Source: Escherichia coli
GTDB taxonomy: Bacteria; Pseudomonadota; Gammaproteobacteria; Enterobacterales; Enterobacteriaceae
DNA: 64,000 bases
Assembly: GCF_044324875.1 (NCBI RefSeq)
Contig: NZ_CP172185.1
Strand: one strand, 5' to 3'
The notes under the pieces are model-generated. The model saw nothing but the letters and a program-made list of their open reading frames with translations, was not told the DNA's origin and did not search any database. How positions within the stretch are numbered: the first letter of the stretch is position 1; each line of letters starts with the position of its first letter. Shown here one piece after another: positions 36,601-49,665 of this stretch. Made by a program: the position numbers and the translations under genes.

Positions 36601-37147
36601 ATCCCTCCTGTCGCGAAAAATGGCCTGCGTTATTGCCAGACGTAATAAAACTTTTGATTAACGTTTCTCGTACTGGTAGCACCTTCATGTACTTTTCTTT
36701 TTTACGAAAAATCAAAAGAGCTAACAAAGGTCATAATTCGCATGAATCATTAATTATTTGTTATTTTCAACATTATTTTTACATTAAGCAGAGATGAATT
36801 GCAGTGAAATTCGACTTAACTTTTATGAAATGCATTTACTCATGGCTAAAGCCACGTCACAAAAATGCAAATTAGAAGTAGATCACAAATATCTCAATAC
36901 ATCAAATCAAGTTAATTTTAAAAATTTAATATTCATGACATTAGTTGACATAACACACTGAATTATAATGAGAATTTGAAAACACACTTTAAACAATCAT
37001 TTCCCGAAAGACATTTTGAAAATAGATCAATTGCAACATTACGGTCAGATAAAGACACTCCTGTGATATTAAACCTGTGCCGTTATGAACGGCCATAAAT
37101 ACGACGTGTGTAACTTATTTTACTCTCTGTCTTACAAAGGATTACCC

Positions 37148-37597
37148 ATGAAGAAAGCAACACTTGTGATTGGCGTTATTGGCGCGGACTGCCATGCAGT
37201 AGGCAATAAAGTTCTGGACCGCGTTTTTAGCAACCATGGCTTCAGAGTCATTAATCTGGGCGTAATGGTCAGCCAGGACGAATATATTGATGCTGCCATT
37301 GAAACTGGTGCTGACGCGATTGTCGTCTCCTCTATCTATGGGCATGGCGATATCGATTGTCTGGGCATGCGCGAACGCTGCATTGAGCGTGGGCTGGGTA
37401 ACATCCTGCTCTATGTGGGCGGTAACCTGGTGGTCGGAAAACATGACTTCGCTGACGTGGAAACCAAGTTCAAAGAGATGGGATTTGATCGCGTCTTTGC
37501 CCCAAGTCATGACTTAGAAGATGTTTGTCAGCTGATGGCCCACGATATCAACCAACGTCATGACGTTGATACTCGCATTCTTGAAGAGGCAATCTGA
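37148..37597 (+). CDS. glmS: Glutamate mutase (methylaspartate mutase) S subunit, B12-binding
   Basis: B12-binding motif (GADCHAVG) and strong resemblance to clostridial GlmS/MutS; start at the ATG at 37148 (149 aa). Confidence 0.85.
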
Positions 37598-38985
37598 TGC
37601 AAATCGTCTCTGTCGATATTGGATCGACGTGGACCAAAGCAGCCCTCTTCGCCCGGGAGGGGGACGCGTTAACGTTGGTTAACCACGTACTGACCCCAAC
37701 CACCACCCATCATCTGGCGAAGGGTTTTTTCTCCAGCCTGAACCTGGTGTTAAACGTAGATAATGCCCTCCCCCTGTTTAACAACGGTGAGGTTGCATTG
37801 AAGTATTCCTCCTCTGCCAAAGGTGGGCTGGCGGTTGCCGCAATGGGGTTGGTGCCATCTATCACCCTGGAAACCGCGAAAGTAACCGCTCACTCTGCGG
37901 GGGCTAAAATTGCGCAATATTACGCCTACAAGCTGAACCGCCGTGATATCCAGGCACTGGAAGAAACGCAGCCCGATATTCTCTTGTTCACCGGCGGCAC
38001 CGACGGCGGAGAAGAAAGCTACGGCCTGAATAACGCCCGTGTGCTGGCAGAATCCAAACTCGACTGCGCCATTATTTATGCCGGAAACCGGGATATTCAG
38101 GACGAGGTGCAGGAGATCCTAGGGCATAAAGACCTGACCATCGTCGACAACGTTCTGCCCGATCTTGACCATCCGAACCCTTTAGCTGCACGCCAGGCTA
38201 TCTGCGACATATTCCTTAAACGCATCGTTAAAGGGAAAGGGCTGGATGTCATTGTTGATAAAACAGGCGAAGAACCAATGCCGACACCATGGACGGTCTT
38301 TGAACTGGTTAAGGCAATCAGTAACGTCGATCACAGCTGGAAAGAGTTCATGCTGATCGACATGGGCGGCGCAACCACCGATGTCTATTCAGCCTGTGCC
38401 AACACGCTCTCGCCCGACACCGTTTTACACGGCGTACCGGAACCCTTCGTGAAACGGACGGTGGAAGGCGATCTGGGAATGCGCGTCTCGGCAATGGTGG
38501 TTGGTGAAAGTGCGAAAGAGTTAGTCAATGTGAATTTTGCTCAGCAACCCGCACAGCTGGACGCTTTTTATCATTACCTCCGTCATCTAGTCGCTCATCC
38601 CGACTACTTACCCGCGAATGTAGAAGAAAAATATTTCGATACCGTCCTGGCCGGACTGTGTGTGGGTTATGCCACCGAAAGACATGCGGGCACCAAAAAA
38701 GAGGTCTGCACCTGCGTCGGCAATGTCGATTTACAGATGGGACGTGACCTGACAACCGTGCGTAAAGTCGTCGGATCCGGCGGATGGCTCTCGCGTGCCA
38801 GTCAGTTCGATATGCATCACTGGTTGAAATACCGCGAGTTAAACGACGACGGTAAACGCATTCTCTTACCGACCGAATTTGAATATTACCGCGATTCCCG
38901 GGGGCTATTACCACTGCTGGCAAACGTCGCCAGAGTCGATCCGCTGGCCGCCGCGCGCACCAGTATTCAATGCTTAACCCTATAA
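37597..38985 (+). CDS. glmL: Glutamate mutase-associated protein L (MutL/GlmL)
   Basis: 462 aa; start overlaps the glmS stop (TGATG); position between S and E subunits as in clostridial operons. Confidence 0.75.
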   Translation: MQIVSVDIGSTWTKAALFAREGDALTLVNHVLTPTTTHHLAKGFFSSLNLVLNVDNALPLFNNGEVALKYSSSAKGGLAVAAMGLVPSITLETAKVTAHSAGAKIAQYYAYKLNRRDIQALEETQPDILLFTGGTDGGEESYGLNNARVLAESKLDCAIIYAGNRDIQDEVQEILGHKDLTIVDNVLPDLDHPNPLAARQAICDIFLKRIVKGKGLDVIVDKTGEEPMPTPWTVFELVKAISNVDHSWKEFMLIDMGGATTDVYSACANTLSPDTVLHGVPEPFVKRTVEGDLGMRVSAMVVGESAKELVNVNFAQQPAQLDAFYHYLRHLVAHPDYLPANVEEKYFDTVLAGLCVGYATERHAGTKKEVCTCVGNVDLQMGRDLTTVRKVVGSGGWLSRASQFDMHHWLKYRELNDDGKRILLPTEFEYYRDSRGLLPLLANVARVDPLAAARTSIQCLTL

Positions 38986-39003
38986 CAATTAAGGCTGCAA
39001 TCA

Positions 39004-40449
39004 ATGGAACTTCGAAATAAGAAATTAACCCATGACGAATTCATGACCGAGCGGCAACAGGTACTGAAAACCTGGGAAACCGGCAAGGATGTTGAAAACT
39101 TTGAAGATGGCGTTAAATACCAACAAACCATTCCTGAGCATAAACGCTTCTCTCTTGTGCTGTTGAAAGCAGACAAGGAAGGTAAAACCCTTAGCCAACC
39201 GCGCGCAGGTGTGGCGCTGATGGACGAACACATCGAACTACTGAAAACACTACAAGAAGAGTGCGATCTGCTGCCGAGCACTATCGATGCATATACCCGT
39301 CTGAATCGGTACGAAGAAGCGGCTGTAGGGATTAAAAAATCCATCGAAGCCGGAACCTCTAAACTGAACGGTTTACCGGTCGTTAACCACGGCGTCGCAG
39401 CTTGCCGTCGCCTCACCGAAACTTTGCAAAAACCGCTACAGATCCGCCACGGCACGCCAGATGCGCGTCTGCTGGCTGAAATCTCGATGTCCAGCGGCTT
39501 TACCAGTTATGAAGGCGGCGGCATTTCCTACAATATTCCGTATGCCAAGCGCGTAACGCTGGAAAAATCGATCCGCGACTGGCAGTACTGCGACCGTTTA
39601 ATGGGGATGTATGAAGAACACGGGATCCGCATCAACCGCGAACCGTTTGGCCCACTAACGGGTACGCTGATCCCGCCGTTTATCTCGCACTCTATCGCGA
39701 TAATCGAAGGCTTGCTGGCGCTGGAACAGGGTGTGAAATCTATCACCGTTGGTTATGGACAGGTCGGCAGCCTGACGCAGGATGTTGCGGCGATCCAGTC
39801 TCTGCGTGAACTTGCACACGAATATTTTCAGAGCTATGGCTATACCGACTATGAATTAAGTACCGTGTTTCACCAGTGGATGGGCGGCTTTCCGGAAGAC
39901 GAATCGAAAGCGTTCGCTATTATCTCCTGGGGCGCAGCCGTCGCGGGGATGTCTGGTGCCACCAAAGTCATCACCAAAAGTCCGCACGAAGCCTGGGGTA
40001 TCCCGACTGCCGCTGCCAACATTCAGGGGCTGAAAGCCTCCCGCCAGATGCTCAACATGGTCAACGAGCAGAAATTCCCGCCGTGCCCTGCGGTTGAACT
40101 GGAAATTGAACTGATTAAGAGCGAGGTTCGCGCGGTACTGAATAAAGTGTTCGAACTGGGTAATGGTGATATTGCGCGCGGTACGGTGCTGGCATTTGAA
40201 GCGGGCGTACTGGATGTGCCGTTTGCGCCAGCCGCCTGCAACGCGGGCAAAATTCTTCCGGTCCGTGACAACACCGGCGCGATACGCGTACTGGAAGCCG
40301 GAGCCGTTCCATTGCCAAAAGATATTCTCGACCTCCACCACGATTACGTTGCGGAACGCGCACGCTTTGAAGGACGCCAACCGACATTCCAGATGGTTGT
40401 AGATGACATCAATGCTGTATCCCACAGTAAATTAATAGGAAGACCATAA
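39004..40449 (+). CDS. glmE: Glutamate mutase (methylaspartate mutase) E subunit
   Basis: 481 aa; extended similarity to clostridial GlmE (LPSTIDAYTR, GGGISYN, TVFHQWMGGFP, FQMVVDDI). Confidence 0.88.
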   Translation: MELRNKKLTHDEFMTERQQVLKTWETGKDVENFEDGVKYQQTIPEHKRFSLVLLKADKEGKTLSQPRAGVALMDEHIELLKTLQEECDLLPSTIDAYTRLNRYEEAAVGIKKSIEAGTSKLNGLPVVNHGVAACRRLTETLQKPLQIRHGTPDARLLAEISMSSGFTSYEGGGISYNIPYAKRVTLEKSIRDWQYCDRLMGMYEEHGIRINREPFGPLTGTLIPPFISHSIAIIEGLLALEQGVKSITVGYGQVGSLTQDVAAIQSLRELAHEYFQSYGYTDYELSTVFHQWMGGFPEDESKAFAIISWGAAVAGMSGATKVITKSPHEAWGIPTAAANIQGLKASRQMLNMVNEQKFPPCPAVELEIELIKSEVRAVLNKVFELGNGDIARGTVLAFEAGVLDVPFAPAACNAGKILPVRDNTGAIRVLEAGAVPLPKDILDLHHDYVAERARFEGRQPTFQMVVDDINAVSHSKLIGRP

Positions 40450-41690
40450 TGAAAATAAAACAGGCTCTGTTCACCGCTGGCTACTCCTCATTCTATTTCG
40501 ATGACCAGCAGGCGATAAAAAACGGAGCGGGTCACGACGGTTTTTTTTATACCGGGGAGCCGGTAACACAGGGGTTTAACGCCGTTCGTCAGGCCGGGGA
40601 GTGCGTATCGGTACAGTTGATTCTGGAAAACGGCGCGGTCGCCGTAGGTGACTGTGCTGCCGTACAGTATTCCGGGGCAGGTGGTCGCGATCCACTGTTC
40701 CTCGCAGAGCACTTTATTCCGTTCCTCAACGACCATATCAAGCCATTACTGGTAGGCCGCGATGTGGATGCTTTCCTGCCGAATGCCCGTTTCTTCGACA
40801 AATTGCGTATTGACGGCAACTTGCTGCATACCGCCGTGCGCTACGGATTATCACAGGCGCTGCTTGATGCTACCGCGCTGGCAACCGGCCGTCTGAAAAC
40901 TGAAGTGGTCTGTGATGAATGGCAGTTGCCACGCGTGGCGGAATCCATTCCATTATTTGGTCAGAGCGGCGACGATCGATATATCGCCGTCGATAAGATG
41001 ATCCTTAAGGGCATCGACGTGCTGCCCCATGCGCTGATTAATAACGTCGAAGAGAAGCTGGGCTTTAAAGGTGAAAAACTGCGCGAATATGTCCGCTGGC
41101 TGTCGGATCGTATTCTGAGCAAGCGCACCAGCGCACGCTACCACCCTACCCTGCACATCGATGTATACGGCACTATCGGTCTGATCTTCGATATGGATCC
41201 GCTTCGCTGTGCGCAATACATCGCCAGCCTGGAAAAAGAAGCGCAAGGCCTGCCGCTCTACATTGAAGGGCCGGTCGATGCTGGTAACAAGCCCGATCAA
41301 ATTCGCCTGCTGACCGCGATTACCAAAGAGCTGACACGCCTCGGTTCCGGCGTGAAAATTGTGGCCGATGAATGGTGTAACACCTACCAGGATATTGTTG
41401 ATTTCACAGATGCCGCCAGTTGCCACATGGTGCAAATCAAAACCCCGGATCTGGGCAGTATTCACAACATCGTCGATGCAGTTCTTTATTGCAACAGCCA
41501 CAGCATGGAAGCGTACCAGGGCGGCACCTGCAATGAAACTGATGTCAGTGCCCGCACCTGTGTCCACGTCGCCCTTGCCGCTCGCCCCATGCGTATGCTG
41601 GTAAAACCAGGGATGGGCTTTGACGAAGGCCTCGATATCGTCTTCAACGAAATGAATCGTACTATCGCGCTGTTGCAGGCTAAGGATTAA
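40449..41690 (+). CDS. mal: 3-methylaspartate ammonia-lyase
   Basis: 413 aa, enolase-superfamily-like; start overlaps the glmE stop (TAATG); typical MAL length. Confidence 0.8.
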   Translation: MKIKQALFTAGYSSFYFDDQQAIKNGAGHDGFFYTGEPVTQGFNAVRQAGECVSVQLILENGAVAVGDCAAVQYSGAGGRDPLFLAEHFIPFLNDHIKPLLVGRDVDAFLPNARFFDKLRIDGNLLHTAVRYGLSQALLDATALATGRLKTEVVCDEWQLPRVAESIPLFGQSGDDRYIAVDKMILKGIDVLPHALINNVEEKLGFKGEKLREYVRWLSDRILSKRTSARYHPTLHIDVYGTIGLIFDMDPLRCAQYIASLEKEAQGLPLYIEGPVDAGNKPDQIRLLTAITKELTRLGSGVKIVADEWCNTYQDIVDFTDAASCHMVQIKTPDLGSIHNIVDAVLYCNSHSMEAYQGGTCNETDVSARTCVHVALAARPMRMLVKPGMGFDEGLDIVFNEMNRTIALLQAKD

Positions 41691-41693
41691 CAA

Positions 41694-43064
41694 ATGGCTC
41701 GTTCTTTTAAAGTCTTATCGCCAACGGCAATCCTCGGGTATGGATTCCCGGAAGAGAGCTTCCGTAAAGCGATGGCAGAATCGCCCGATCTGATCGCCGT
41801 TGATGCAGGCTCTTCCGATCCAGGCCCCCACTACCTCGGGGCAGGCAAACCGTTTACCGATCGCGCAGGGGTCAAGCGCGATCTGCGCTATATGATCACC
41901 GCAGGCGTGCAAAATAATATACCGGTGGTGATCGGAACGGCTGGCGGTTCTGGTGCCGCACCACACCTGGAGTGGTGCCGAGAAATAATTCATGAGATTG
42001 CCCGGGAAGAGCAACTCGCGTTCTCGATGGCGCTGATCCCGGCAGACGTTGACAAAGCCATCGTCCACCAGGCGCTGGATAACGGCAAAATCACGGCGCT
42101 GGATTTTGTCCCGCCGTTAACCCACGACGCGATTGACGAAAGTACGTATATCGTCGCGCAAATGGGCATCGAACCCTTCCAGCGGGCGCTGAAAGAAGGC
42201 GCGCAAGTGGTGCTGGGCGGGCGCGCTTACGACCCGGCCTGCTTTGCTGCGCTACCGATCATGCAAGGCTTTGATGAAGGTCTGGCGCTGCATTGTGGGA
42301 AAATCCTTGAATGCGCGGCAATCGCCGCAACGCCCGGCTCAGGCTCTGACTGTGCGATGGGCATCATTGATGACAACGGCTTTACGCTGAAGACATTTAA
42401 TCCGAAGCGTAAATTTACCGAAACGTCAGCGGCTGCACACACACTGTATGAGAAATCCGATCCCTACTTCCTGCCTGGACCTGGCGGCGTGTTGAACCTG
42501 AAAGGCTGCACATTTAAAGCGGTCAATGACGGCGAAGTGTACGTCAGCGGTTCTAAGTATGAAGAAACGCCGTATTCCCTGAAACTGGAAGGTGCGCGAC
42601 GGGTGGGCTTCCGCTGTCTGACCATCGCAGGAACGCGCGACCCGATCATGATCGCCGGGATCGATAAAATCATTGATGAAGTCAAAACCAGCGTTTCGCG
42701 TAACCTGTCGCTCGACGATGACAGTATTCACATCAATTTCCACCTGTACGGCAAAAACGGGGTGATGGGCGACCATGAACCGATGCAAACTGCCGGGCAT
42801 GAGCTGGGGATTGTCCTTGATGTAGTTGCACCGACCCAGGAAATTGCCAATAGCGTTTGCTCGCTGGTGCGCTCTACCATGCTGCACTACGGCTATGAAA
42901 ACCGCATCGCTACCGCAGGTAATCTGGCGTTCCCGTTCTCCCCTTCTGATATCCAGGGCGGGCCGGTATACGAATTTTCCATATATCACCTGATTGAAGC
43001 CAACGACGCTCTGCGTTTTGATTTCCATATTGAACAGGTGACGCCAGAAGGAGTTCAGGCATGA
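41694..43064 (+). CDS. Conserved protein of unknown function, resembling the DUF1446 (AtuA-like) family
   Basis: 456-aa ORF starting 4 nt after the mal stop; family assignment from memory, not searched. Confidence 0.6.
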   Translation: MARSFKVLSPTAILGYGFPEESFRKAMAESPDLIAVDAGSSDPGPHYLGAGKPFTDRAGVKRDLRYMITAGVQNNIPVVIGTAGGSGAAPHLEWCREIIHEIAREEQLAFSMALIPADVDKAIVHQALDNGKITALDFVPPLTHDAIDESTYIVAQMGIEPFQRALKEGAQVVLGGRAYDPACFAALPIMQGFDEGLALHCGKILECAAIAATPGSGSDCAMGIIDDNGFTLKTFNPKRKFTETSAAAHTLYEKSDPYFLPGPGGVLNLKGCTFKAVNDGEVYVSGSKYEETPYSLKLEGARRVGFRCLTIAGTRDPIMIAGIDKIIDEVKTSVSRNLSLDDDSIHINFHLYGKNGVMGDHEPMQTAGHELGIVLDVVAPTQEIANSVCSLVRSTMLHYGYENRIATAGNLAFPFSPSDIQGGPVYEFSIYHLIEANDALRFDFHIEQVTPEGVQA

Positions 43065-43378
43065 AACAGTCAATTGTCTCACTGGCGCAAGTCATTCGTT
43101 CGAAAAATGCCGGACCTTACGAACTGGTTTTAGATATTTTATTTAAAACCAAAGAAAACTATGAGCGAGTTAAATCATCAGGGCAATTAACCCCAGAACT
43201 GATTGCGCGCTTATATCATGTTGAACCTGACTTTATTCATCGTATTGTCTGGTTTGATCCTTCTAACGCAGTAAAAATCGTCATGCCACGAGATATTATC
43301 TCCGGGAATGTAGGTGACAATGATGTCTATGGTGCACAGCAACATGCACCTTTATTAAATATGAGTTTCGATTTGTAA
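43061..43378 (+). CDS. Small conserved protein of unknown function (105 aa), likely the DUF4387-type partner
   Basis: ATGA overlap with the preceding gene; size and pairing typical of DUF1446/DUF4387 gene pairs as I recall them. Confidence 0.55.
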   Translation: MKQSIVSLAQVIRSKNAGPYELVLDILFKTKENYERVKSSGQLTPELIARLYHVEPDFIHRIVWFDPSNAVKIVMPRDIISGNVGDNDVYGAQQHAPLLNMSFDL

Positions 43379-43461
43379 AAATCCGAATACTTTTAGCCAA
43401 CTGACATCCCGTCACTTATTGCAGTTCAACACTTCAGCTATTTGTAAGGTTGTAATAGCAG

Positions 43462-43493
43462 GTAGATGCCTGAATCTCTATTCAGACATCTAC
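43462..43493 (+). terminator. Strong hairpin (gtagatg-ctgaat…attcag-catctac) with partial U-tract, between the DUF pair and the transporter
   Basis: 13-bp stem with one mismatch followed by ttctcctgattctgattt; seen directly. Confidence 0.45.
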
Positions 43494-43538
43494 TTCTCCT
43501 GATTCTGATTTATCGCCGTGCACCTGATGGAGGAAAAA

Positions 43539-44819
43539 ATGAAGAAAATAAGTTTAACCACGATGATTCTTTTGGCACTGGTACTTGGAATGATTATCGG
43601 CGTAGTGCTCAATAACACTGCTTCACCGGAAACCGCAAAACTCTATGCGCAAGAAATATCGATATTCACGACGATTTTCTTACGACTGATAAAAATGATT
43701 ATCGCTCCGTTAGTGGTCTCTACCCTGGTGGTAGGTATAGCTAAAATGGGCGATGCCAAAGCCCTTGGTCGTATTTTTTCTAAAACACTCTTTTTATTTA
43801 TTTGCGCCTCATTGCTGTCAATTGCCTTAGGCTTGATAACAGTAAATTTCTTCATGCCAGGCACAGGAATTAATTTTGTTGCACACGGAGCCGAAACCAC
43901 CGGAGTGGTCGCGTCAGAACCCTTTACGCTAAAAGTATTTATTTCGCATGCTTTCCCCACCAGCATTGTCGATGCCATGGCGCACAATGAAATTTTGCAA
44001 ATCGTAGTGTTCTCAATTTTCCTCGGCTGTAGCCTGACGGCGATTGGCGAGAAAGGCAGCGCCATCGTTCACGCCTTAGATTCGCTGGCACATGCCATGT
44101 TAAAGCTCACTGGCTACGTCATGCTCTTCGCTCCCCTGACCGTATTCGCCGCTATTTCAGCATTGATTGCTGAACGAGGACTGGCAGTTATGGTGAGCGC
44201 CGGGATCTTTATGGGTGAATTTTATTTCACCATGTTGTTACTTTGGGTGCTGCTTATCGGTCTGGCCATCGTTTATGTCGGCCCCTGCATCAGACGCCTG
44301 ACCCGCGCCCTTTCGGAACCCGCTCTGCTGGCATTTACCACATCCAGTTCTGAAGCGGCTTTTCCGGGAACGCTTGAAAAACTGGAGCAATTTGGCGTTT
44401 CCCCCAAAATTGCCAGCTTTGTCTTACCCATTGGCTACTCATTTAATCTCGTTGGATCAATGGCCTACTGCTCCTTCGCCACAGTTTTCATCGCCCAGGC
44501 CTGCAATATCCATTTATCCATCGGTGAGCAAATCACCATGCTGTTGATCCTGATGTTGACCTCGAAAGGAATGGCTGGCGTACCACGCGCCTCAATGGTG
44601 GTTATCGCCGCCACGCTCAACCAGTTCAATATTCCGGAAGCGGGGCTGATCTTGCTGATGGGCGTTGATCCGTTCCTTGATATGGGGCGTTCCGCGACAA
44701 ACGTCATGAGCAACGCAATGGGCGCTGCGATGGTGAGTCGGTGGGAAGGCGAACATTTCGGCGAGGGTTGTCGGGGTAAAGCATTAAAACCCAATGAATC
44801 GAACGTTGCTCTGCCCTGA
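43539..44819 (+). CDS. Dicarboxylate/amino-acid:cation symporter (GltP/DctA-like)
   Basis: Polytopic membrane protein with DAACS-like motifs; GGAGG RBS before the ATG at 43539 (426 aa). Confidence 0.8.
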   Translation: MKKISLTTMILLALVLGMIIGVVLNNTASPETAKLYAQEISIFTTIFLRLIKMIIAPLVVSTLVVGIAKMGDAKALGRIFSKTLFLFICASLLSIALGLITVNFFMPGTGINFVAHGAETTGVVASEPFTLKVFISHAFPTSIVDAMAHNEILQIVVFSIFLGCSLTAIGEKGSAIVHALDSLAHAMLKLTGYVMLFAPLTVFAAISALIAERGLAVMVSAGIFMGEFYFTMLLLWVLLIGLAIVYVGPCIRRLTRALSEPALLAFTTSSSEAAFPGTLEKLEQFGVSPKIASFVLPIGYSFNLVGSMAYCSFATVFIAQACNIHLSIGEQITMLLILMLTSKGMAGVPRASMVVIAATLNQFNIPEAGLILLMGVDPFLDMGRSATNVMSNAMGAAMVSRWEGEHFGEGCRGKALKPNESNVALP

Positions 44820-44926
44820 GGGGGATCTTAAGCAATCAGAAGCCAATGACTACGCATTTTTATAAGCCGGATCATGAAGTTAGACGGCAATTAAGTAACA
44901 CTAACGTTTAAGGTGAAAAGTGAAAT

Positions 44927-46579
44927 ATGTCCAAACCATTTATCTGGCAAGAACCGTTTCTACAAAATAAAGACGGTACAGAATATACATTAATTAGCGA
45001 TCAACATATTACAGTAACGGAATTAGACGGCGAAGAAGTGATAAAAATCGCTCCTGAAGCATTAACGCTGCTTGCCCGGCAGGCATTTTATGAAGCCTCT
45101 TTTTTCTTACGTTCCGCTCATTTGCAACAGGTCGCCAGCATTCTTAACGATCCGCAGGCCAGTAGTAATGATAAATACGTTGCGTTGCAGTTATTACGTA
45201 ATGCTGAAGTCTCAGCAAAAGGGGTATTACCCAACTGTCAGGATACCGGCACCGCAACTATTGTTGCCAGTAAAGGGCAACAGATATGGACGGGAGGTAA
45301 CGACGCTGAAGCCTTAAGCAAAGGCATTTACAGTACTTTCCAGGAAAATAATCTGCGCTTTTCACAAAATGCGCCGCTGGATATGTATACCGAAGTCAAT
45401 ACGCAAACCAATCTCCCGGCGCAGATTGATATCAGCGCTGTCGCTGGTAATGAGTACCATTTTCTCTGTGTTAATAAAGGGGGCGGCTCCGCCAATAAAG
45501 CCGCACTTTATCAGGAAACCAAATCCTTATTGCAACCAGAAAAACTGACCGCATTTTTAATCGAAAAAATGAAATCGCTGGGCACCGCTGCCTGCCCGCC
45601 TTACCACATCGCCTTTGTCGTCGGAGGGCTTTCAGCCGATCAAACCTTAAAAGTTGCCAAGCTGGCCTCTACGAAATATTACGACAATTTGCCCACCAGC
45701 GGAAACGAGCAGGGACAAGCATTCCGTGATATTGAGCTGGAAAAAGTGTTGCTCGAGGTCAGTCAGCAATTTGGTATTGGTGCGCAATTTGGGGGTAAAT
45801 ATTTCGCTCATGATATTCGCGTCATTCGTCTGCCGCGTCACGGTGGCTCTTGCCCGATAGCTATGACGCTCTCCTGTTCTGCCGATCGCAATATCAAAGC
45901 AAAAATTAACAAGCACGGTATCTGGCTGGAAAAACTCGAACACAATCCGGGGCAATATATTCCAGCCTCACTGCGGGAAGAAAATCACGCGCAACATGTA
46001 CAACTGGATCTAAACCGTCCGTTGCGTGACGTGATGCAGGATCTCGCCAGATTACCGGTAGGCACCCGCGTGTCGTTAAGTGGTCCCATCGTAGTGGCAC
46101 GCGATATCGCCCACGCCAAAATAAAAGCGCGGCTGGATAACGCCGAACCGATGCCGGATTACCTGAAGCATCATATTGTCTATTACGCTGGCCCGGCGAA
46201 AACACCGGAGAACATGGCCTGCGGTTCACTGGGTCCAACCACGGGCGGTCGAATGGACGGTTATGTCGATACCTTCCAGGCGGCTGGCGGCAGTCTGGTG
46301 ATGTTATCGAAAGGTAACCGCAGCCAGCAGGTCACCGATGCCTGTCACAAACATGGTGGCTTCAATCTGGGTAGTATTGGCGGTGCAGCTGCGTTACTGG
46401 CGCAAGAATATGTCAAAAGTCTGCGTTGCCTGGAATACCCGGAGCTGGGTATGGAAGCGGTGTGGATGATGGAAGTGGAAAATCTGCCCGCATTCATCCT
46501 GGTAGATGATAAAGGCAATAATTTCTTTAGTCAGTTTGAGCAGCAACACCGCTGCGCCAGTTGCCCTGCGGGACATTAA
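44927..46579 (+). CDS. fumD: Class I (Fe-S) fumarate hydratase paralogue; FumD-type mesaconase/fumarase
   Basis: 550 aa, alignable by eye with FumA along the whole length; clustering with glutamate mutase and methylaspartase matches published FumD. Confidence 0.8.
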
Positions 46580-46588
46580 GGAAAATGA

Positions 46589-47191
46589 ATGGAAGCGCGA
46601 ATTTCAACTGAACGGCATGTGCAGCGCCAGCAGAAATTGAAGGAACAGGTCGATACGCGCATCGCGGCGGCGATAGAGAAAAAAGGGATTTTGATTGTTT
46701 TCACCGGCAATGGCAAAGGGAAATCCACTGCCGCGTTTGGTACTGTGACGCGCGCGGTGGGTCATGGCAAAACGGTGGGGGTTGCGCAGTACATCAAGGG
46801 GCAATGGGACAACGGCGAATACAACCTTCTCCAGCCGCTGGGGGTTGAGTTTCATATTATGGGAACCGGTTTTACCTGGGAGACACAGAACCGGCAAGCG
46901 GATATCGACGCGGCGAAAGAGGTCTGGTCGGAAAGCAAACGGATGCTGGCTGACAAGCGTTACGACTTAGTGGTGCTTGATGAGCTGACCTATATGCTGG
47001 CTTACCATTATCTGGATACCGAAGAAGTGATCGCTTCTCTGCAAAACCGCCCGGCACAACAAAGTGTCATTGTCACCGGACGCGGTTGCCACAGTCAGAT
47101 ATTAAAAATGGCGGATACGGTCAGCGAAATCCGCCCCGTCAAACATGCTTTTGATAACGGCATTCAGGCCCAGCCGGGTATCGACTGGTAA
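46589..47191 (+). CDS. Cob(I)alamin/cob(I)yrinic acid a,c-diamide adenosyltransferase paralogue (BtuR/CobO-like)
   Basis: 200 aa; P-loop (GNGKGKSTAAFG) and close resemblance to E. coli BtuR. Confidence 0.85.
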   Translation: MEARISTERHVQRQQKLKEQVDTRIAAAIEKKGILIVFTGNGKGKSTAAFGTVTRAVGHGKTVGVAQYIKGQWDNGEYNLLQPLGVEFHIMGTGFTWETQNRQADIDAAKEVWSESKRMLADKRYDLVVLDELTYMLAYHYLDTEEVIASLQNRPAQQSVIVTGRGCHSQILKMADTVSEIRPVKHAFDNGIQAQPGIDW

Positions 47192-47194
47192 TAA

Positions 47195-47221
47195 CTGCGC
47201 CTGGCATCCCGCCAGGCGCAG
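47195..47221. terminator. Bidirectional hairpin (ctgcgcctggc…gccaggcgcag) between convergent cobO-like and LysR genes
   Basis: 11-bp perfect stem followed by gtttta; seen directly. Confidence 0.6.
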
Positions 47222-47224
47222 GTT

Positions 47225-48130
47225 TTACATCTCCTGCGGTACAACCGATTTCGCCAGCAACCATTCACGAAATTGCTGCAAGTGCGGTGAGTCAGACTTC
47301 TCTTCCTGCCACGTCATAATAAAACGATTACCGGTACGAATAGGCACATCACAGGGGATCACCATATCGCCACTATCCAAATCATGTTGAATAGCGAAAC
47401 GTGGTAACAGCGCCACGCCGAGATTAGAGCGCACGGCGGCAATCAGCATTGAAAGCAAATCGAAACGTGGTCCGTTGTTGACCAGCGGACTGCTAACGCC
47501 AGATAAGGCAAACCACTCTTCCCAGCCAGTAATACGGGTACTTTGATGCAGAAGTGGTAACTCTGTAAGCAGTTCTGCCACTGACAGTTTTTGATCGGAC
47601 ATTGCAAGCAAACTGCCGCTGCATACCGGCAAAATCTCCTCATCAAAGAGATATTCTACTTCCGCCCAGGGCGCGCAAAAATTTTCGCGCATAATGACAG
47701 CATCGTACTCCCGATTAAGAAAATCGCCGTTATTAGCTAAAGAGTGAATATTAACAATAATATCGGGATGTAACTTTGTGAATTCATGTAAATTTGGGAT
47801 TAACCAGTGGGTACTAAACGTAGGATTCACGGCAAGTTCAATAACCTGAACCGTAGGCTGCCAGGTCATAATGGTATTGGTATCGCGTTCCAGCTTATTT
47901 AATGTTTCTTTTACTATCCCCAGGTAATACTTCCCTGCATCATTAAGAAAAATACGTTTTTTAGAGTGTGAAAATAACGGAGTATGTAAAAATTCCTCCA
48001 GCGCACTCACTTGTCTGAATACTGCACTTTGGGTCAACGCTAACTCCTCTGCCGCTTTGGTATAACTTTCATGACGTGCGACGACCTCAAAAGTCACCAG
48101 CAGCTCCGTTTTAGGTATTTTTCCTCGCAT
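47225..48130 (-). CDS. LysR-family transcriptional regulator
   Basis: 301 aa; N-terminal HTH (YTKAAEELALTQSAVFRQVSALEE). Confidence 0.85.
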   Translation of the reverse strand: MRGKIPKTELLVTFEVVARHESYTKAAEELALTQSAVFRQVSALEEFLHTPLFSHSKKRIFLNDAGKYYLGIVKETLNKLERDTNTIMTWQPTVQVIELAVNPTFSTHWLIPNLHEFTKLHPDIIVNIHSLANNGDFLNREYDAVIMRENFCAPWAEVEYLFDEEILPVCSGSLLAMSDQKLSVAELLTELPLLHQSTRITGWEEWFALSGVSSPLVNNGPRFDLLSMLIAAVRSNLGVALLPRFAIQHDLDSGDMVIPCDVPIRTGNRFIMTWQEEKSDSPHLQQFREWLLAKSVVPQEM

Positions 48131-48169
48131 AATGCCGTCCCTTAAAAATAGTTTAAACCATCAAAAATA

Positions 48170-48191
48170 CATTACTTATTACGAAGTAATG
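48170..48191. promoter_or_regulatory. Perfect 22-bp palindrome CATTACTTATTACGAAGTAATG upstream of the LysR gene
   Basis: 8-bp inverted arms around a 6-bp spacer, 40-60 bp upstream of the start codon. Confidence 0.45.
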
Positions 48192-48693
48192 GTAACCAAA
48201 GCAGCAATAAATAATTTATAAGAATCATGATTGACATTTATAACCCAGTAAGCCTGGCGTGACAAATATCTTAATCAGATAATAATAATCCGAAAAGCAC
48301 AGCGCCTTTCGAATTATCCGGAATCACATTAAGTGAAAATTATTAAATTGATATCATTTATCATATCTGTGGATATTATGATAAACAATCAACAAAGATT
48401 TTATTTTTGATTTATAGCATATCCCTCTAAGAATTTTTGCGATGCTGCAATATCCGGGGTAAAGACCCGATCCTGGCTGACAAATGGCACGACTTGACGA
48501 TAAGCGGTGAACATCGCTTTTGTTGATTTACTTAACGCTACGGTCAAACGCTGGGAAGCCAGTGCATCAGGTAACGATTCGAAATTCGCCGTCGTTCTTA
48601 TTCGTGGCTTGCGGTCGGTTGCGGCAATCCACAGTGGCTGTGGTCATGCAGTCAAGCCAGCGGTCAGATTTCGACCGTGGTTAACATTTAAGG

Positions 48694-48720
48694 CATAAAA
48701 AAGGCCATCATACGATGGCC
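48694..48720 (-). terminator. Rho-independent terminator after sucD (ggccatc…gatggcc plus U-run)
   Basis: Hairpin then TTTTTTTAT on the minus strand. Confidence 0.7.
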
Positions 48721-48795
48721 AACCATGTCGAAACCGACAACCCTTCGCCATTCCTGTAGAGGGAAGCGGCGAGGGCTATTTCTTATTACAGATAT
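48694..48795 (-). ncRNA. sdhX: sucD 3' UTR, the region from which the SdhX (RybD) sRNA derives in E. coli
   Basis: Position only (between the sucD stop and its terminator); I could not verify the sRNA sequence from memory. Confidence 0.35.
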
Positions 48796-49665
48796 TTATT
48801 TCAGAACAGTTTTCAGTGCTTCACCGATATCCGCCAGGCTGCGAACGGTTTTCACGCCTGCGGCTTCCAGAGCAGCGAATTTCTCATCCGCAGTCCCTTT
48901 ACCACCGGCAATGATGGCACCCGCGTGGCCCATACGTTTGCCTTTCGGCGCAGTCACACCAGCGATGTAACCCACAACAGGCTTGGTAACGTGCTCTTTG
49001 ATGTACGCAGCCGCTTCTTCTTCAGCGCTACCGCCGATCTCACCGATCATCACGATCGCTTCGGTCTGCGGATCTTTTTCGAACATTTCGAGAATGTCGA
49101 TAAAGTTAGAGCCAGGGATCGGATCGCCGCCGATACCAACACAGGTCGACTGACCGAAACCGTAATCCGTGGTCTGTTTAACCGCTTCATAGGTCAGTGT
49201 ACCGGAACGGGAAACGATACCCACTTTACCCGGTTTGTGAATGTGACCCGGCTGGATACCGATTTTGCATTCACCCGGAGTGATAACGCCTGGGCAGTTC
49301 GGGCCGATCATACGAACGCCAGCTTCGTCCAGTTTCACTTTCACAGTCAGCATATCCAGCGTCGGGATGCCTTCAGTGATGGTGATAATCAGTTTGATGC
49401 CTGCATCGATGGCTTCCAGAATGGAGTCTTTGCAGAACGGTGCTGGTACGTAGATAACAGAAGCGGTAGCGCCAGTAGCAGCAACAGCTTCACGCACGGT
49501 GTTGAACACCGGCAGGCCGAGGTGGGTGGTGCCGCCTTTACCTGGGGTTACGCCGCCAACCATTTTAGTGCCGTATGCAATGGCCTGTTCTGAGTGGAAA
49601 GTCCCCTGGCTACCGGTAAAGCCCTGGCAGATAACCTTGGTGTTTTTATCAATTAAAATGGACAT
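48796..49665 (-). CDS. sucD: Succinyl-CoA synthetase alpha subunit
   Basis: 289 aa; synteny. Confidence 0.95.

Follow-up and report, generated by a model that had tools for sequence, protein, structure and literature searches.

The classical citramalate lyase (EC 4.1.3.22) of Clostridium tetanomorphum, an enzyme of the CitDEF type, cleaves citramalate into pyruvate and acetate as a three-subunit complex whose acyl carrier protein bears a phosphoribosyl-dephospho-CoA (CoA, coenzyme A) prosthetic group; it operates through an acetyl thioester and acyl exchange, and needs activating enzymes. Cleavage of free citramalate must generate an acetate carbanion, and it is for this reason that the classical enzymes use thioesters. 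Citramalate is likewise converted into pyruvate and a C2 unit by succinyl-CoA:citramalate CoA-transferase and citramalyl-CoA lyase (PMC4682846, Fig 2 legend), a route of mesaconate and itaconate degradation and of the 3-hydroxypropionate bi-cycle which, unlike the enzyme considered here, relies on CoA activation and yields acetyl-CoA. That enzyme, CmlAB, is known from the Klebsiella/Raoultella group through two crystal structures (PDB 9ERQ and 9EVF). It catalyses the same reaction as the classical lyase, but has two subunits, is described as CoA-independent, binds ATP or ADP, and shows no sequence or fold relation to that lyase or to the homologous citrate lyase CitDEF with its CitC, CitX and CitG proteins. 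The present analysis concerns a 64,000-nucleotide stretch of an Escherichia coli genome (RefSeq assembly GCF_044324875.1, contig NZ_CP172185.1; hereafter the window), in which two overlapping genes on the + strand encode proteins of 456 (41694..43064) and 105 (43061..43378) amino acids. With a probability of about 0.9, these are CmlA and CmlB, the large and small subunits of a non-canonical citramalate lyase that works without CoA or an acyl carrier protein and completes the glutamate route of the surrounding operon.

The identification is carried by the solved structures. In phmmer comparisons the 456-residue protein aligned over its entire length with chain A of 9ERQ and 9EVF (residues 1-456 on 1-456, E = 1.5e-290), with 417 of 456 residues (91%) identical, and residues 1-104 of the smaller protein aligned with chain B (E = 5.2e-57, 85% identity). 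The 39 differences in CmlA and the 16, among 104 positions, in CmlB are mostly conservative, and, in an alignment of 14 family sequences, none of the former falls on any of the 59 invariant or 48 nearly invariant columns. The pair shares the three-dimensional fold of the solved enzyme. The depositors named the chains 'Citramalate lyase, subunit A (cmlA)' and 'subunit B (cmlB)', and the entries, one titled 'Citramalate lyase - AMPPNP - citramalate complex' (released 2025-10-22) and the other 'Citramalate lyase - ADP - pyruvate complex' (released 2025-10-08), show the A/B complex of this close homologue with two sets of ligands, citramalate plus an ATP analogue in the former and pyruvate plus ADP in the latter. 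When the PDB was searched by sequence with CmlA and CmlB, nothing besides these two entries matched, and CmlAB has no close structural relative among solved structures. The exact sequence of the crystallised chain A carries a Klebsiella michiganensis label in the protein collection and matches loci of Klebsiella, Citrobacter and Raoultella at 96-98% identity (96.9% for that in a metagenome-assembled genome (MAG) of an uncultured Raoultella sp.), while the exact CmlA sequence of the window is on record from E. coli.

Evidence in vivo comes from the homologous genes of Raoultella planticola: an acetyl-CoA auxotroph of E. coli evolved growth on mesaconate only when it carried a cmlAB plasmid, mesaconate then supplying its acetyl-CoA, and isotope labelling showed mesaconate carbon arriving in acetyl-CoA (bioRxiv 10.64898/2026.01.16.699985). 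Full-length homology to CmlA, an adjoining cmlB, the conserved residues and neighbouring genes for the making of (S)-citramalate together suggest that the E. coli CmlAB, like its Klebsiella/Raoultella-type homologue, converts (S)-citramalate into pyruvate and acetate. The initial annotation of this stretch had proposed, from gene context, a two-protein complex for the step after (S)-citramalate; that inference was correct, being borne out by the 91% and 85% identical solved pair and by the mesaconate-fed auxotroph, though it could foresee neither that an answer already existed nor that an adenine nucleotide would be bound. The citramalate lyase function of CmlAB was previously established and deposited by others, and is not new here.

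The existence of the gene pair itself is plain from the open reading frames, the sequence and Pfam, all of which agree with the initial description of two overlapping frames of DUF1446 and DUF4387 type. The larger protein matches AtuA (PF07287, the former DUF1446; E = 6.4e-19, 68.5 bits, residues 63-394) and the smaller DUF4387 (PF14330, E = 2.9e-39); no further Pfam family and no NCBIfam model matched either of them. AtuA is named after the acyclic terpene utilisation protein of Pseudomonas, to whose protein family CmlA belongs, and RefSeq calls the E. coli proteins 'acyclic terpene utilization AtuA family protein' and 'DUF4387 domain-containing protein'. Were CmlA a true AtuA, it would act in the degradation of citronellol or geraniol. 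The Pfam match is, however, moderate, and gives a family label rather than a function; the cluster contains no further gene of atu type, whether for a carboxylase, an acyl-CoA dehydrogenase or a hydratase, and neighbours for glutamate mutase, methylaspartase and mesaconase accompany the pair in 65-69 of 74 informative loci of the survey described below. The Pseudomonas protein stands in an atu cluster, as against the glm/mal setting of CmlA, and its substrate presumably differs, a comparison made by family, gene context and the low score of CmlA against the Pfam AtuA model. A role in terpene utilisation can be given almost no credence; between them, the gene context and the structures with bound ligands as good as refute it.

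Wider conservation was surveyed by scanning one genome per species with the 14-sequence alignment as query. This gave 80 loci with CmlA identities of 56-92%, so that the survey covers relatives of at least 56% identity and distant AtuA paralogues lie outside its reach. The loci span Enterobacterales, Rhodocyclales, Riflebacteria, Lentisphaerae, Acidobacteriota, Spirochaetes, Chloroflexi, Planctomycetota, Bacillota and others. Neighbours were counted by tblastn with the window proteins, and loci with enough flanking sequence were taken as informative. cmlB lies immediately 3' of cmlA in 76 of 77 such loci, and the methylaspartase gene mal immediately 5' of cmlA on the same strand in 65 of 74; in three more of the 74, mal is found elsewhere in the locus, and in one glmSLE lies downstream. 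The order glmS-mutL-glmE-mal-AtuA-DUF4387 also recurs in all four distant homologues inspected (62-67% identity; Rifleibacterium and three metagenomic contigs). The co-occurrence with glutamate mutase and methylaspartase genes which the initial annotation had suggested surveying is thus very strong. The AtuA family as a whole comprises 2394 clusters at E <= 0.001 among 1.84 billion representatives, and among the top 150 all 17 AtuA representatives longer than 520 residues have a C-terminal DUF4387. Such fusions support the view that CmlA and CmlB act as one unit, and, since many members are built in this way, the sequences mark the A/B unit as a conserved module of the AtuA family.

Several observations weigh against the proposed role in E. 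coli. A search of the literature found no assay of the E. coli CmlAB proteins. The pair occurs without glm or mal genes in about five of the 74 loci, and so is not strictly bound to glutamate breakdown: in Shewanella (two species), Desulfospira and Accumulibacter (L027, L063, L070 and L074) cmlAB stands alone, with neither glm/mal nor fumarase genes nearby, while a Holophagaceae locus (L040:9633-13764) has the order cmlA-cmlB-P-loop-fumarase alpha/beta (the two-subunit class I enzyme), again without glm or mal. Finally, a P-loop protein has been added in many non-enterobacterial clusters and is absent from E. coli; sought in the window by tblastn, it gave a best E value of 0.11. The Holophagaceae locus is a bare mesaconate-to-pyruvate module. 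As a separate observation, the orphan pairs of Shewanella come after an open reading frame of about 1370 codons.

It might be supposed that the pair acts on another intermediate of the route, activating, phosphorylating or epimerising 3-methylaspartate or mesaconate, instead of cleaving citramalate. cmlAB directly follows mal rather than fumD, the binding of an adenine nucleotide would suit a kinase or a ligase, and some databases label CmlA '3-methylaspartate ammonia-lyase'; the initial annotation had itself allowed for some other 3-methylaspartate-linked activity. That alternative finds no support: the crystals hold citramalate and pyruvate, which are the substrate and product of a lyase, cmlAB together with host fumarase alone makes mesaconate a source of acetyl-CoA in vivo, and in Holophagaceae the pair is accompanied by fumarase alone. 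As to the label, Kronen and Berg state that there is no known basis for calling the protein a methylaspartase (PMC4682846). Action on another intermediate is therefore judged very improbable, and citramalate cleavage by CmlAB is retained.

In the complete route, glutamate would enter through the GltP-like carrier and be rearranged to 3-methylaspartate by glutamate mutase GlmS/GlmE, whose B12 cofactor would be supported by GlmL and CobO; Mal would then form mesaconate, FumD would hydrate this to (S)-citramalate, and CmlAB would cleave the latter, CoA-free, into pyruvate and acetate. How the carbanion is avoided bears on the role of the nucleotide. We favour the view that there is no net consumption of ATP, which would serve instead as a phosphoryl cofactor that is recycled, or else as an obligatory activator. 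In the first case, the C4 carboxylate of citramalate may be transiently phosphorylated by ATP; pyruvate and acetyl phosphate would arise from the cleavage, and the phosphoryl group would be returned to ADP, so that the nucleotide would be a catalytic cofactor recycled via an acyl phosphate, in a phosphate-based equivalent of the classical acetyl-thioester cycle. This more specific proposal is tentative, and we would put it at somewhat unlikely. The authors of the preprint conjecture that 20 mM acetate thermodynamically disfavours the cleavage (bioRxiv 10.64898/2026.01.16.699985); although a conjecture and not a measurement, this fits a reaction that is not driven by net hydrolysis of ATP. If phosphoryl recycling were correct, the wider AtuA-DUF4387 family, fusions included, might be made up of lyases that depend on a nucleotide and act on other 2- or 3-hydroxy acids; the two-domain P-loop protein encoded beside cmlB outside Enterobacterales might be an accessory factor that is dispensable in enterobacteria; and the E. 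coli operon would be self-contained, leading from glutamate to pyruvate, acetate and ammonia in a B12-dependent manner and without CoA.

The two genes are closely knit to each other and to mal. The TAA stop codon of mal (41688-41690) is followed by a CAA spacer of three nucleotides and then by the ATG of cmlA at 41694, and the ATG of cmlB (43061-43063) runs into the TGA of cmlA (43062-43064) in an ATGA overlap. A good Shine-Dalgarno sequence can be read seven nucleotides ahead of each start codon, AAGGA at 41682..41686 (+) within the 3' end of mal for cmlA, and AAGGAG at 43048..43053 (+) within the 3' end of cmlA for cmlB. To judge from this spacing, CmlA and CmlB are probably made together by translational coupling, from one transcript with glmSLE-mal. 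Upstream lie, all on the + strand and named from their open reading frames and the RefSeq annotation of a 99% identical locus (L001), glmS for the B12-binding subunit S of glutamate (methylaspartate) mutase (37148..37597), glmL or mutL for the accessory (reactivating) protein of the mutase (37597..38985), orthologues of which elsewhere have a Pfam MutL match, glmE for mutase subunit E (39004..40449), and mal for 3-methylaspartate ammonia-lyase (40449..41690, 413 amino acids). The junctions from glmS to cmlB range from a 4-nucleotide overlap to an 18-nucleotide gap, the latter between glmL and glmE, with overlaps of one nucleotide at glmS/glmL and at glmE/mal. Two starts may be considered for glmS: the frame may begin at 37085, giving 170 residues, and the RefSeq product of 150 residues corresponds to the start at 37148.

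Downstream of cmlB, again on the + strand, a dicarboxylate/amino acid:cation symporter of the GltP/DctA family (43539..44819, with an alternative GTG start at 43518), so named by RefSeq and matching NCBIfam DctA and GltP models only below their curated cut-offs, is a probable glutamate uptake system. It is followed by fumD (44927..46579; NCBIfam NF011921, 1279.6 bits, above the cut-off), for the class I fumarase/mesaconase that converts mesaconate into (S)-citramalate, and by cobO or cobA (46589..47191; TIGR00708 and NF004637 above the cut-off, and RefSeq), for the cob(I)yrinic acid a,c-diamide adenosyltransferase, which would provide adenosyl-B12 for glutamate mutase. An intrinsic-terminator-like hairpin of 11 pairs, nine of them GC (47195..47221, +), closes this row of + strand genes; it is the top terminator-like site across 36400-48400, and the gap between cmlB and the transporter gene holds no site comparable to it. 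Beyond it, a LysR-type regulator gene lies in the opposite orientation (47225..48130, -) and accompanies the cluster in Enterobacterales (LysR in 18 loci). An Rfam scan of 34300-48800 found neither a B12 nor any other riboswitch, and a promoter scan was uninformative, giving fewer promoter-like matches than shuffled sequence. Between 37085 and 48130 there is no gene for a CitDEF-type lyase subunit or for activation proteins of the CitC, CitX or CitG type, so the cluster does not belong to the classical type; and, as the initial annotation had noted for the transferase, neither a CoA-transferase nor a CitE/HpcH-type lyase is found among its annotated genes.

The cluster has been described before from E. 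coli O157:H7, in which FumD was characterised as a mesaconase (Kronen and Berg 2015, PMC4682846). Of the O157:H7 strains that the same authors surveyed, 90.6% had genes for glutamate mutase and methylaspartase. They remarked on the DUF1446 gene 3' of mal, did not find citramalate lyase activity in cells with citrate, acetate or propionate as growth substrate, and considered it unclear what becomes of citramalate (PMC4682846); the initial annotation, in reporting the fate of citramalate as unresolved, was accurate for that study. Expression of the cluster could not be achieved in O157:H7 (PMC4682846), and this raises the question whether the genes are a silent, horizontally acquired remnant, encoding lyase-capable proteins without a physiological role. 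The restricted distribution of the island (just 1125 of 5426 complete E. coli genomes) and its position between cydAB on one side and sucCD on the other, beside an AT-rich stretch, might be taken in the same sense. Against this, every reading frame is intact, the 1685 bp of the pair are conserved at 95-99% identity in the genomes that have them, and, in comparisons with Citrobacter, Salmonella and Klebsiella orthologues, the ratio of non-synonymous to synonymous substitution rates (dN/dS) is 0.03-0.06 in cmlA and cmlB alike, at dS values above 1, which argues against a decaying remnant. Nor need genes that are silent on laboratory media be silent in the gut, which offers B12 and glutamate. A silent remnant is accordingly considered improbable, if less so than the alternatives discussed above, and a functional CmlAB remains the preferred interpretation. 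A decaying pseudogene is rejected, given the intact frames and the low dN/dS. Nor is cmlAB a chance pair of open reading frames: it is kept within E. coli and across phyla, under strong purifying selection.

With CmlAB as its last enzyme the operon, present in about one fifth of complete E. coli genomes and in many other enterobacteria, would take glutamate, plentiful in the gut, all the way to pyruvate, acetate and ammonia in a B12-dependent manner, and CmlAB as the final step would close the gap left in 2015. Two proteins and a nucleotide would do what the classical lyase does by means of an acyl carrier protein complex, and CmlAB is already in use in synthetic pathways. The practical value of the present assignment is in annotation, RefSeq having kept to the AtuA and DUF4387 names and NCBIfam offering no model. 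In several public records (P0002, P0060, P0077 and P0129) CmlA is misnamed as 3-methylaspartate ammonia-lyase; the 90% identity cluster of CmlA also includes true 413-residue methylaspartases, which looks like a clustering artefact.

The enterobacterial clusters differ among themselves in the distance between the transporter and fumD genes. Measured from start to start, this is 1.4 kb in E. coli, and about 2.4-2.6 kb in most of the Citrobacter and Klebsiella-group relatives (loci L007-L017 and L055, from Citrobacter, Klebsiella, Salmonella, Lelliottia and the uncultured Raoultella sp. MAG). The longer distance implies one extra gene of about 1.1 kb in these relatives, which is absent from E. 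coli; the extra gene between transporter and fumD is a glutaminase gene (PMC4682846). A further lineage-wide feature, at the codon level, is that cmlB is far richer in AT than the overlapping cmlA: GC content is 38%, and 32% at third codon positions (GC3), against 55% and 60% for cmlA, the two genes lying some 12 points apart in Enterobacterales and some 5 points apart in other groups.

The edges of the island show further peculiarities. On the left, the region between cydA and glmS (34350-37100) is AT-rich, with 33-39% GC, and contains two open reading frames without an NCBIfam match, at 35153-36097 (314 amino acids) and 36178-36600 (140 amino acids), both carrying the name 'hypothetical protein' in E. 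coli LR-28; they give the impression of cargo picked up separately at this edge. The right flank differs by strain (window 47225-48800 compared with L001:14532-19685): in the window, sucD follows about 660 nucleotides past the LysR gene, while in E. coli LR-28 a HAL/PAL-type ammonia-lyase gene and hutG/hutI lie past it.
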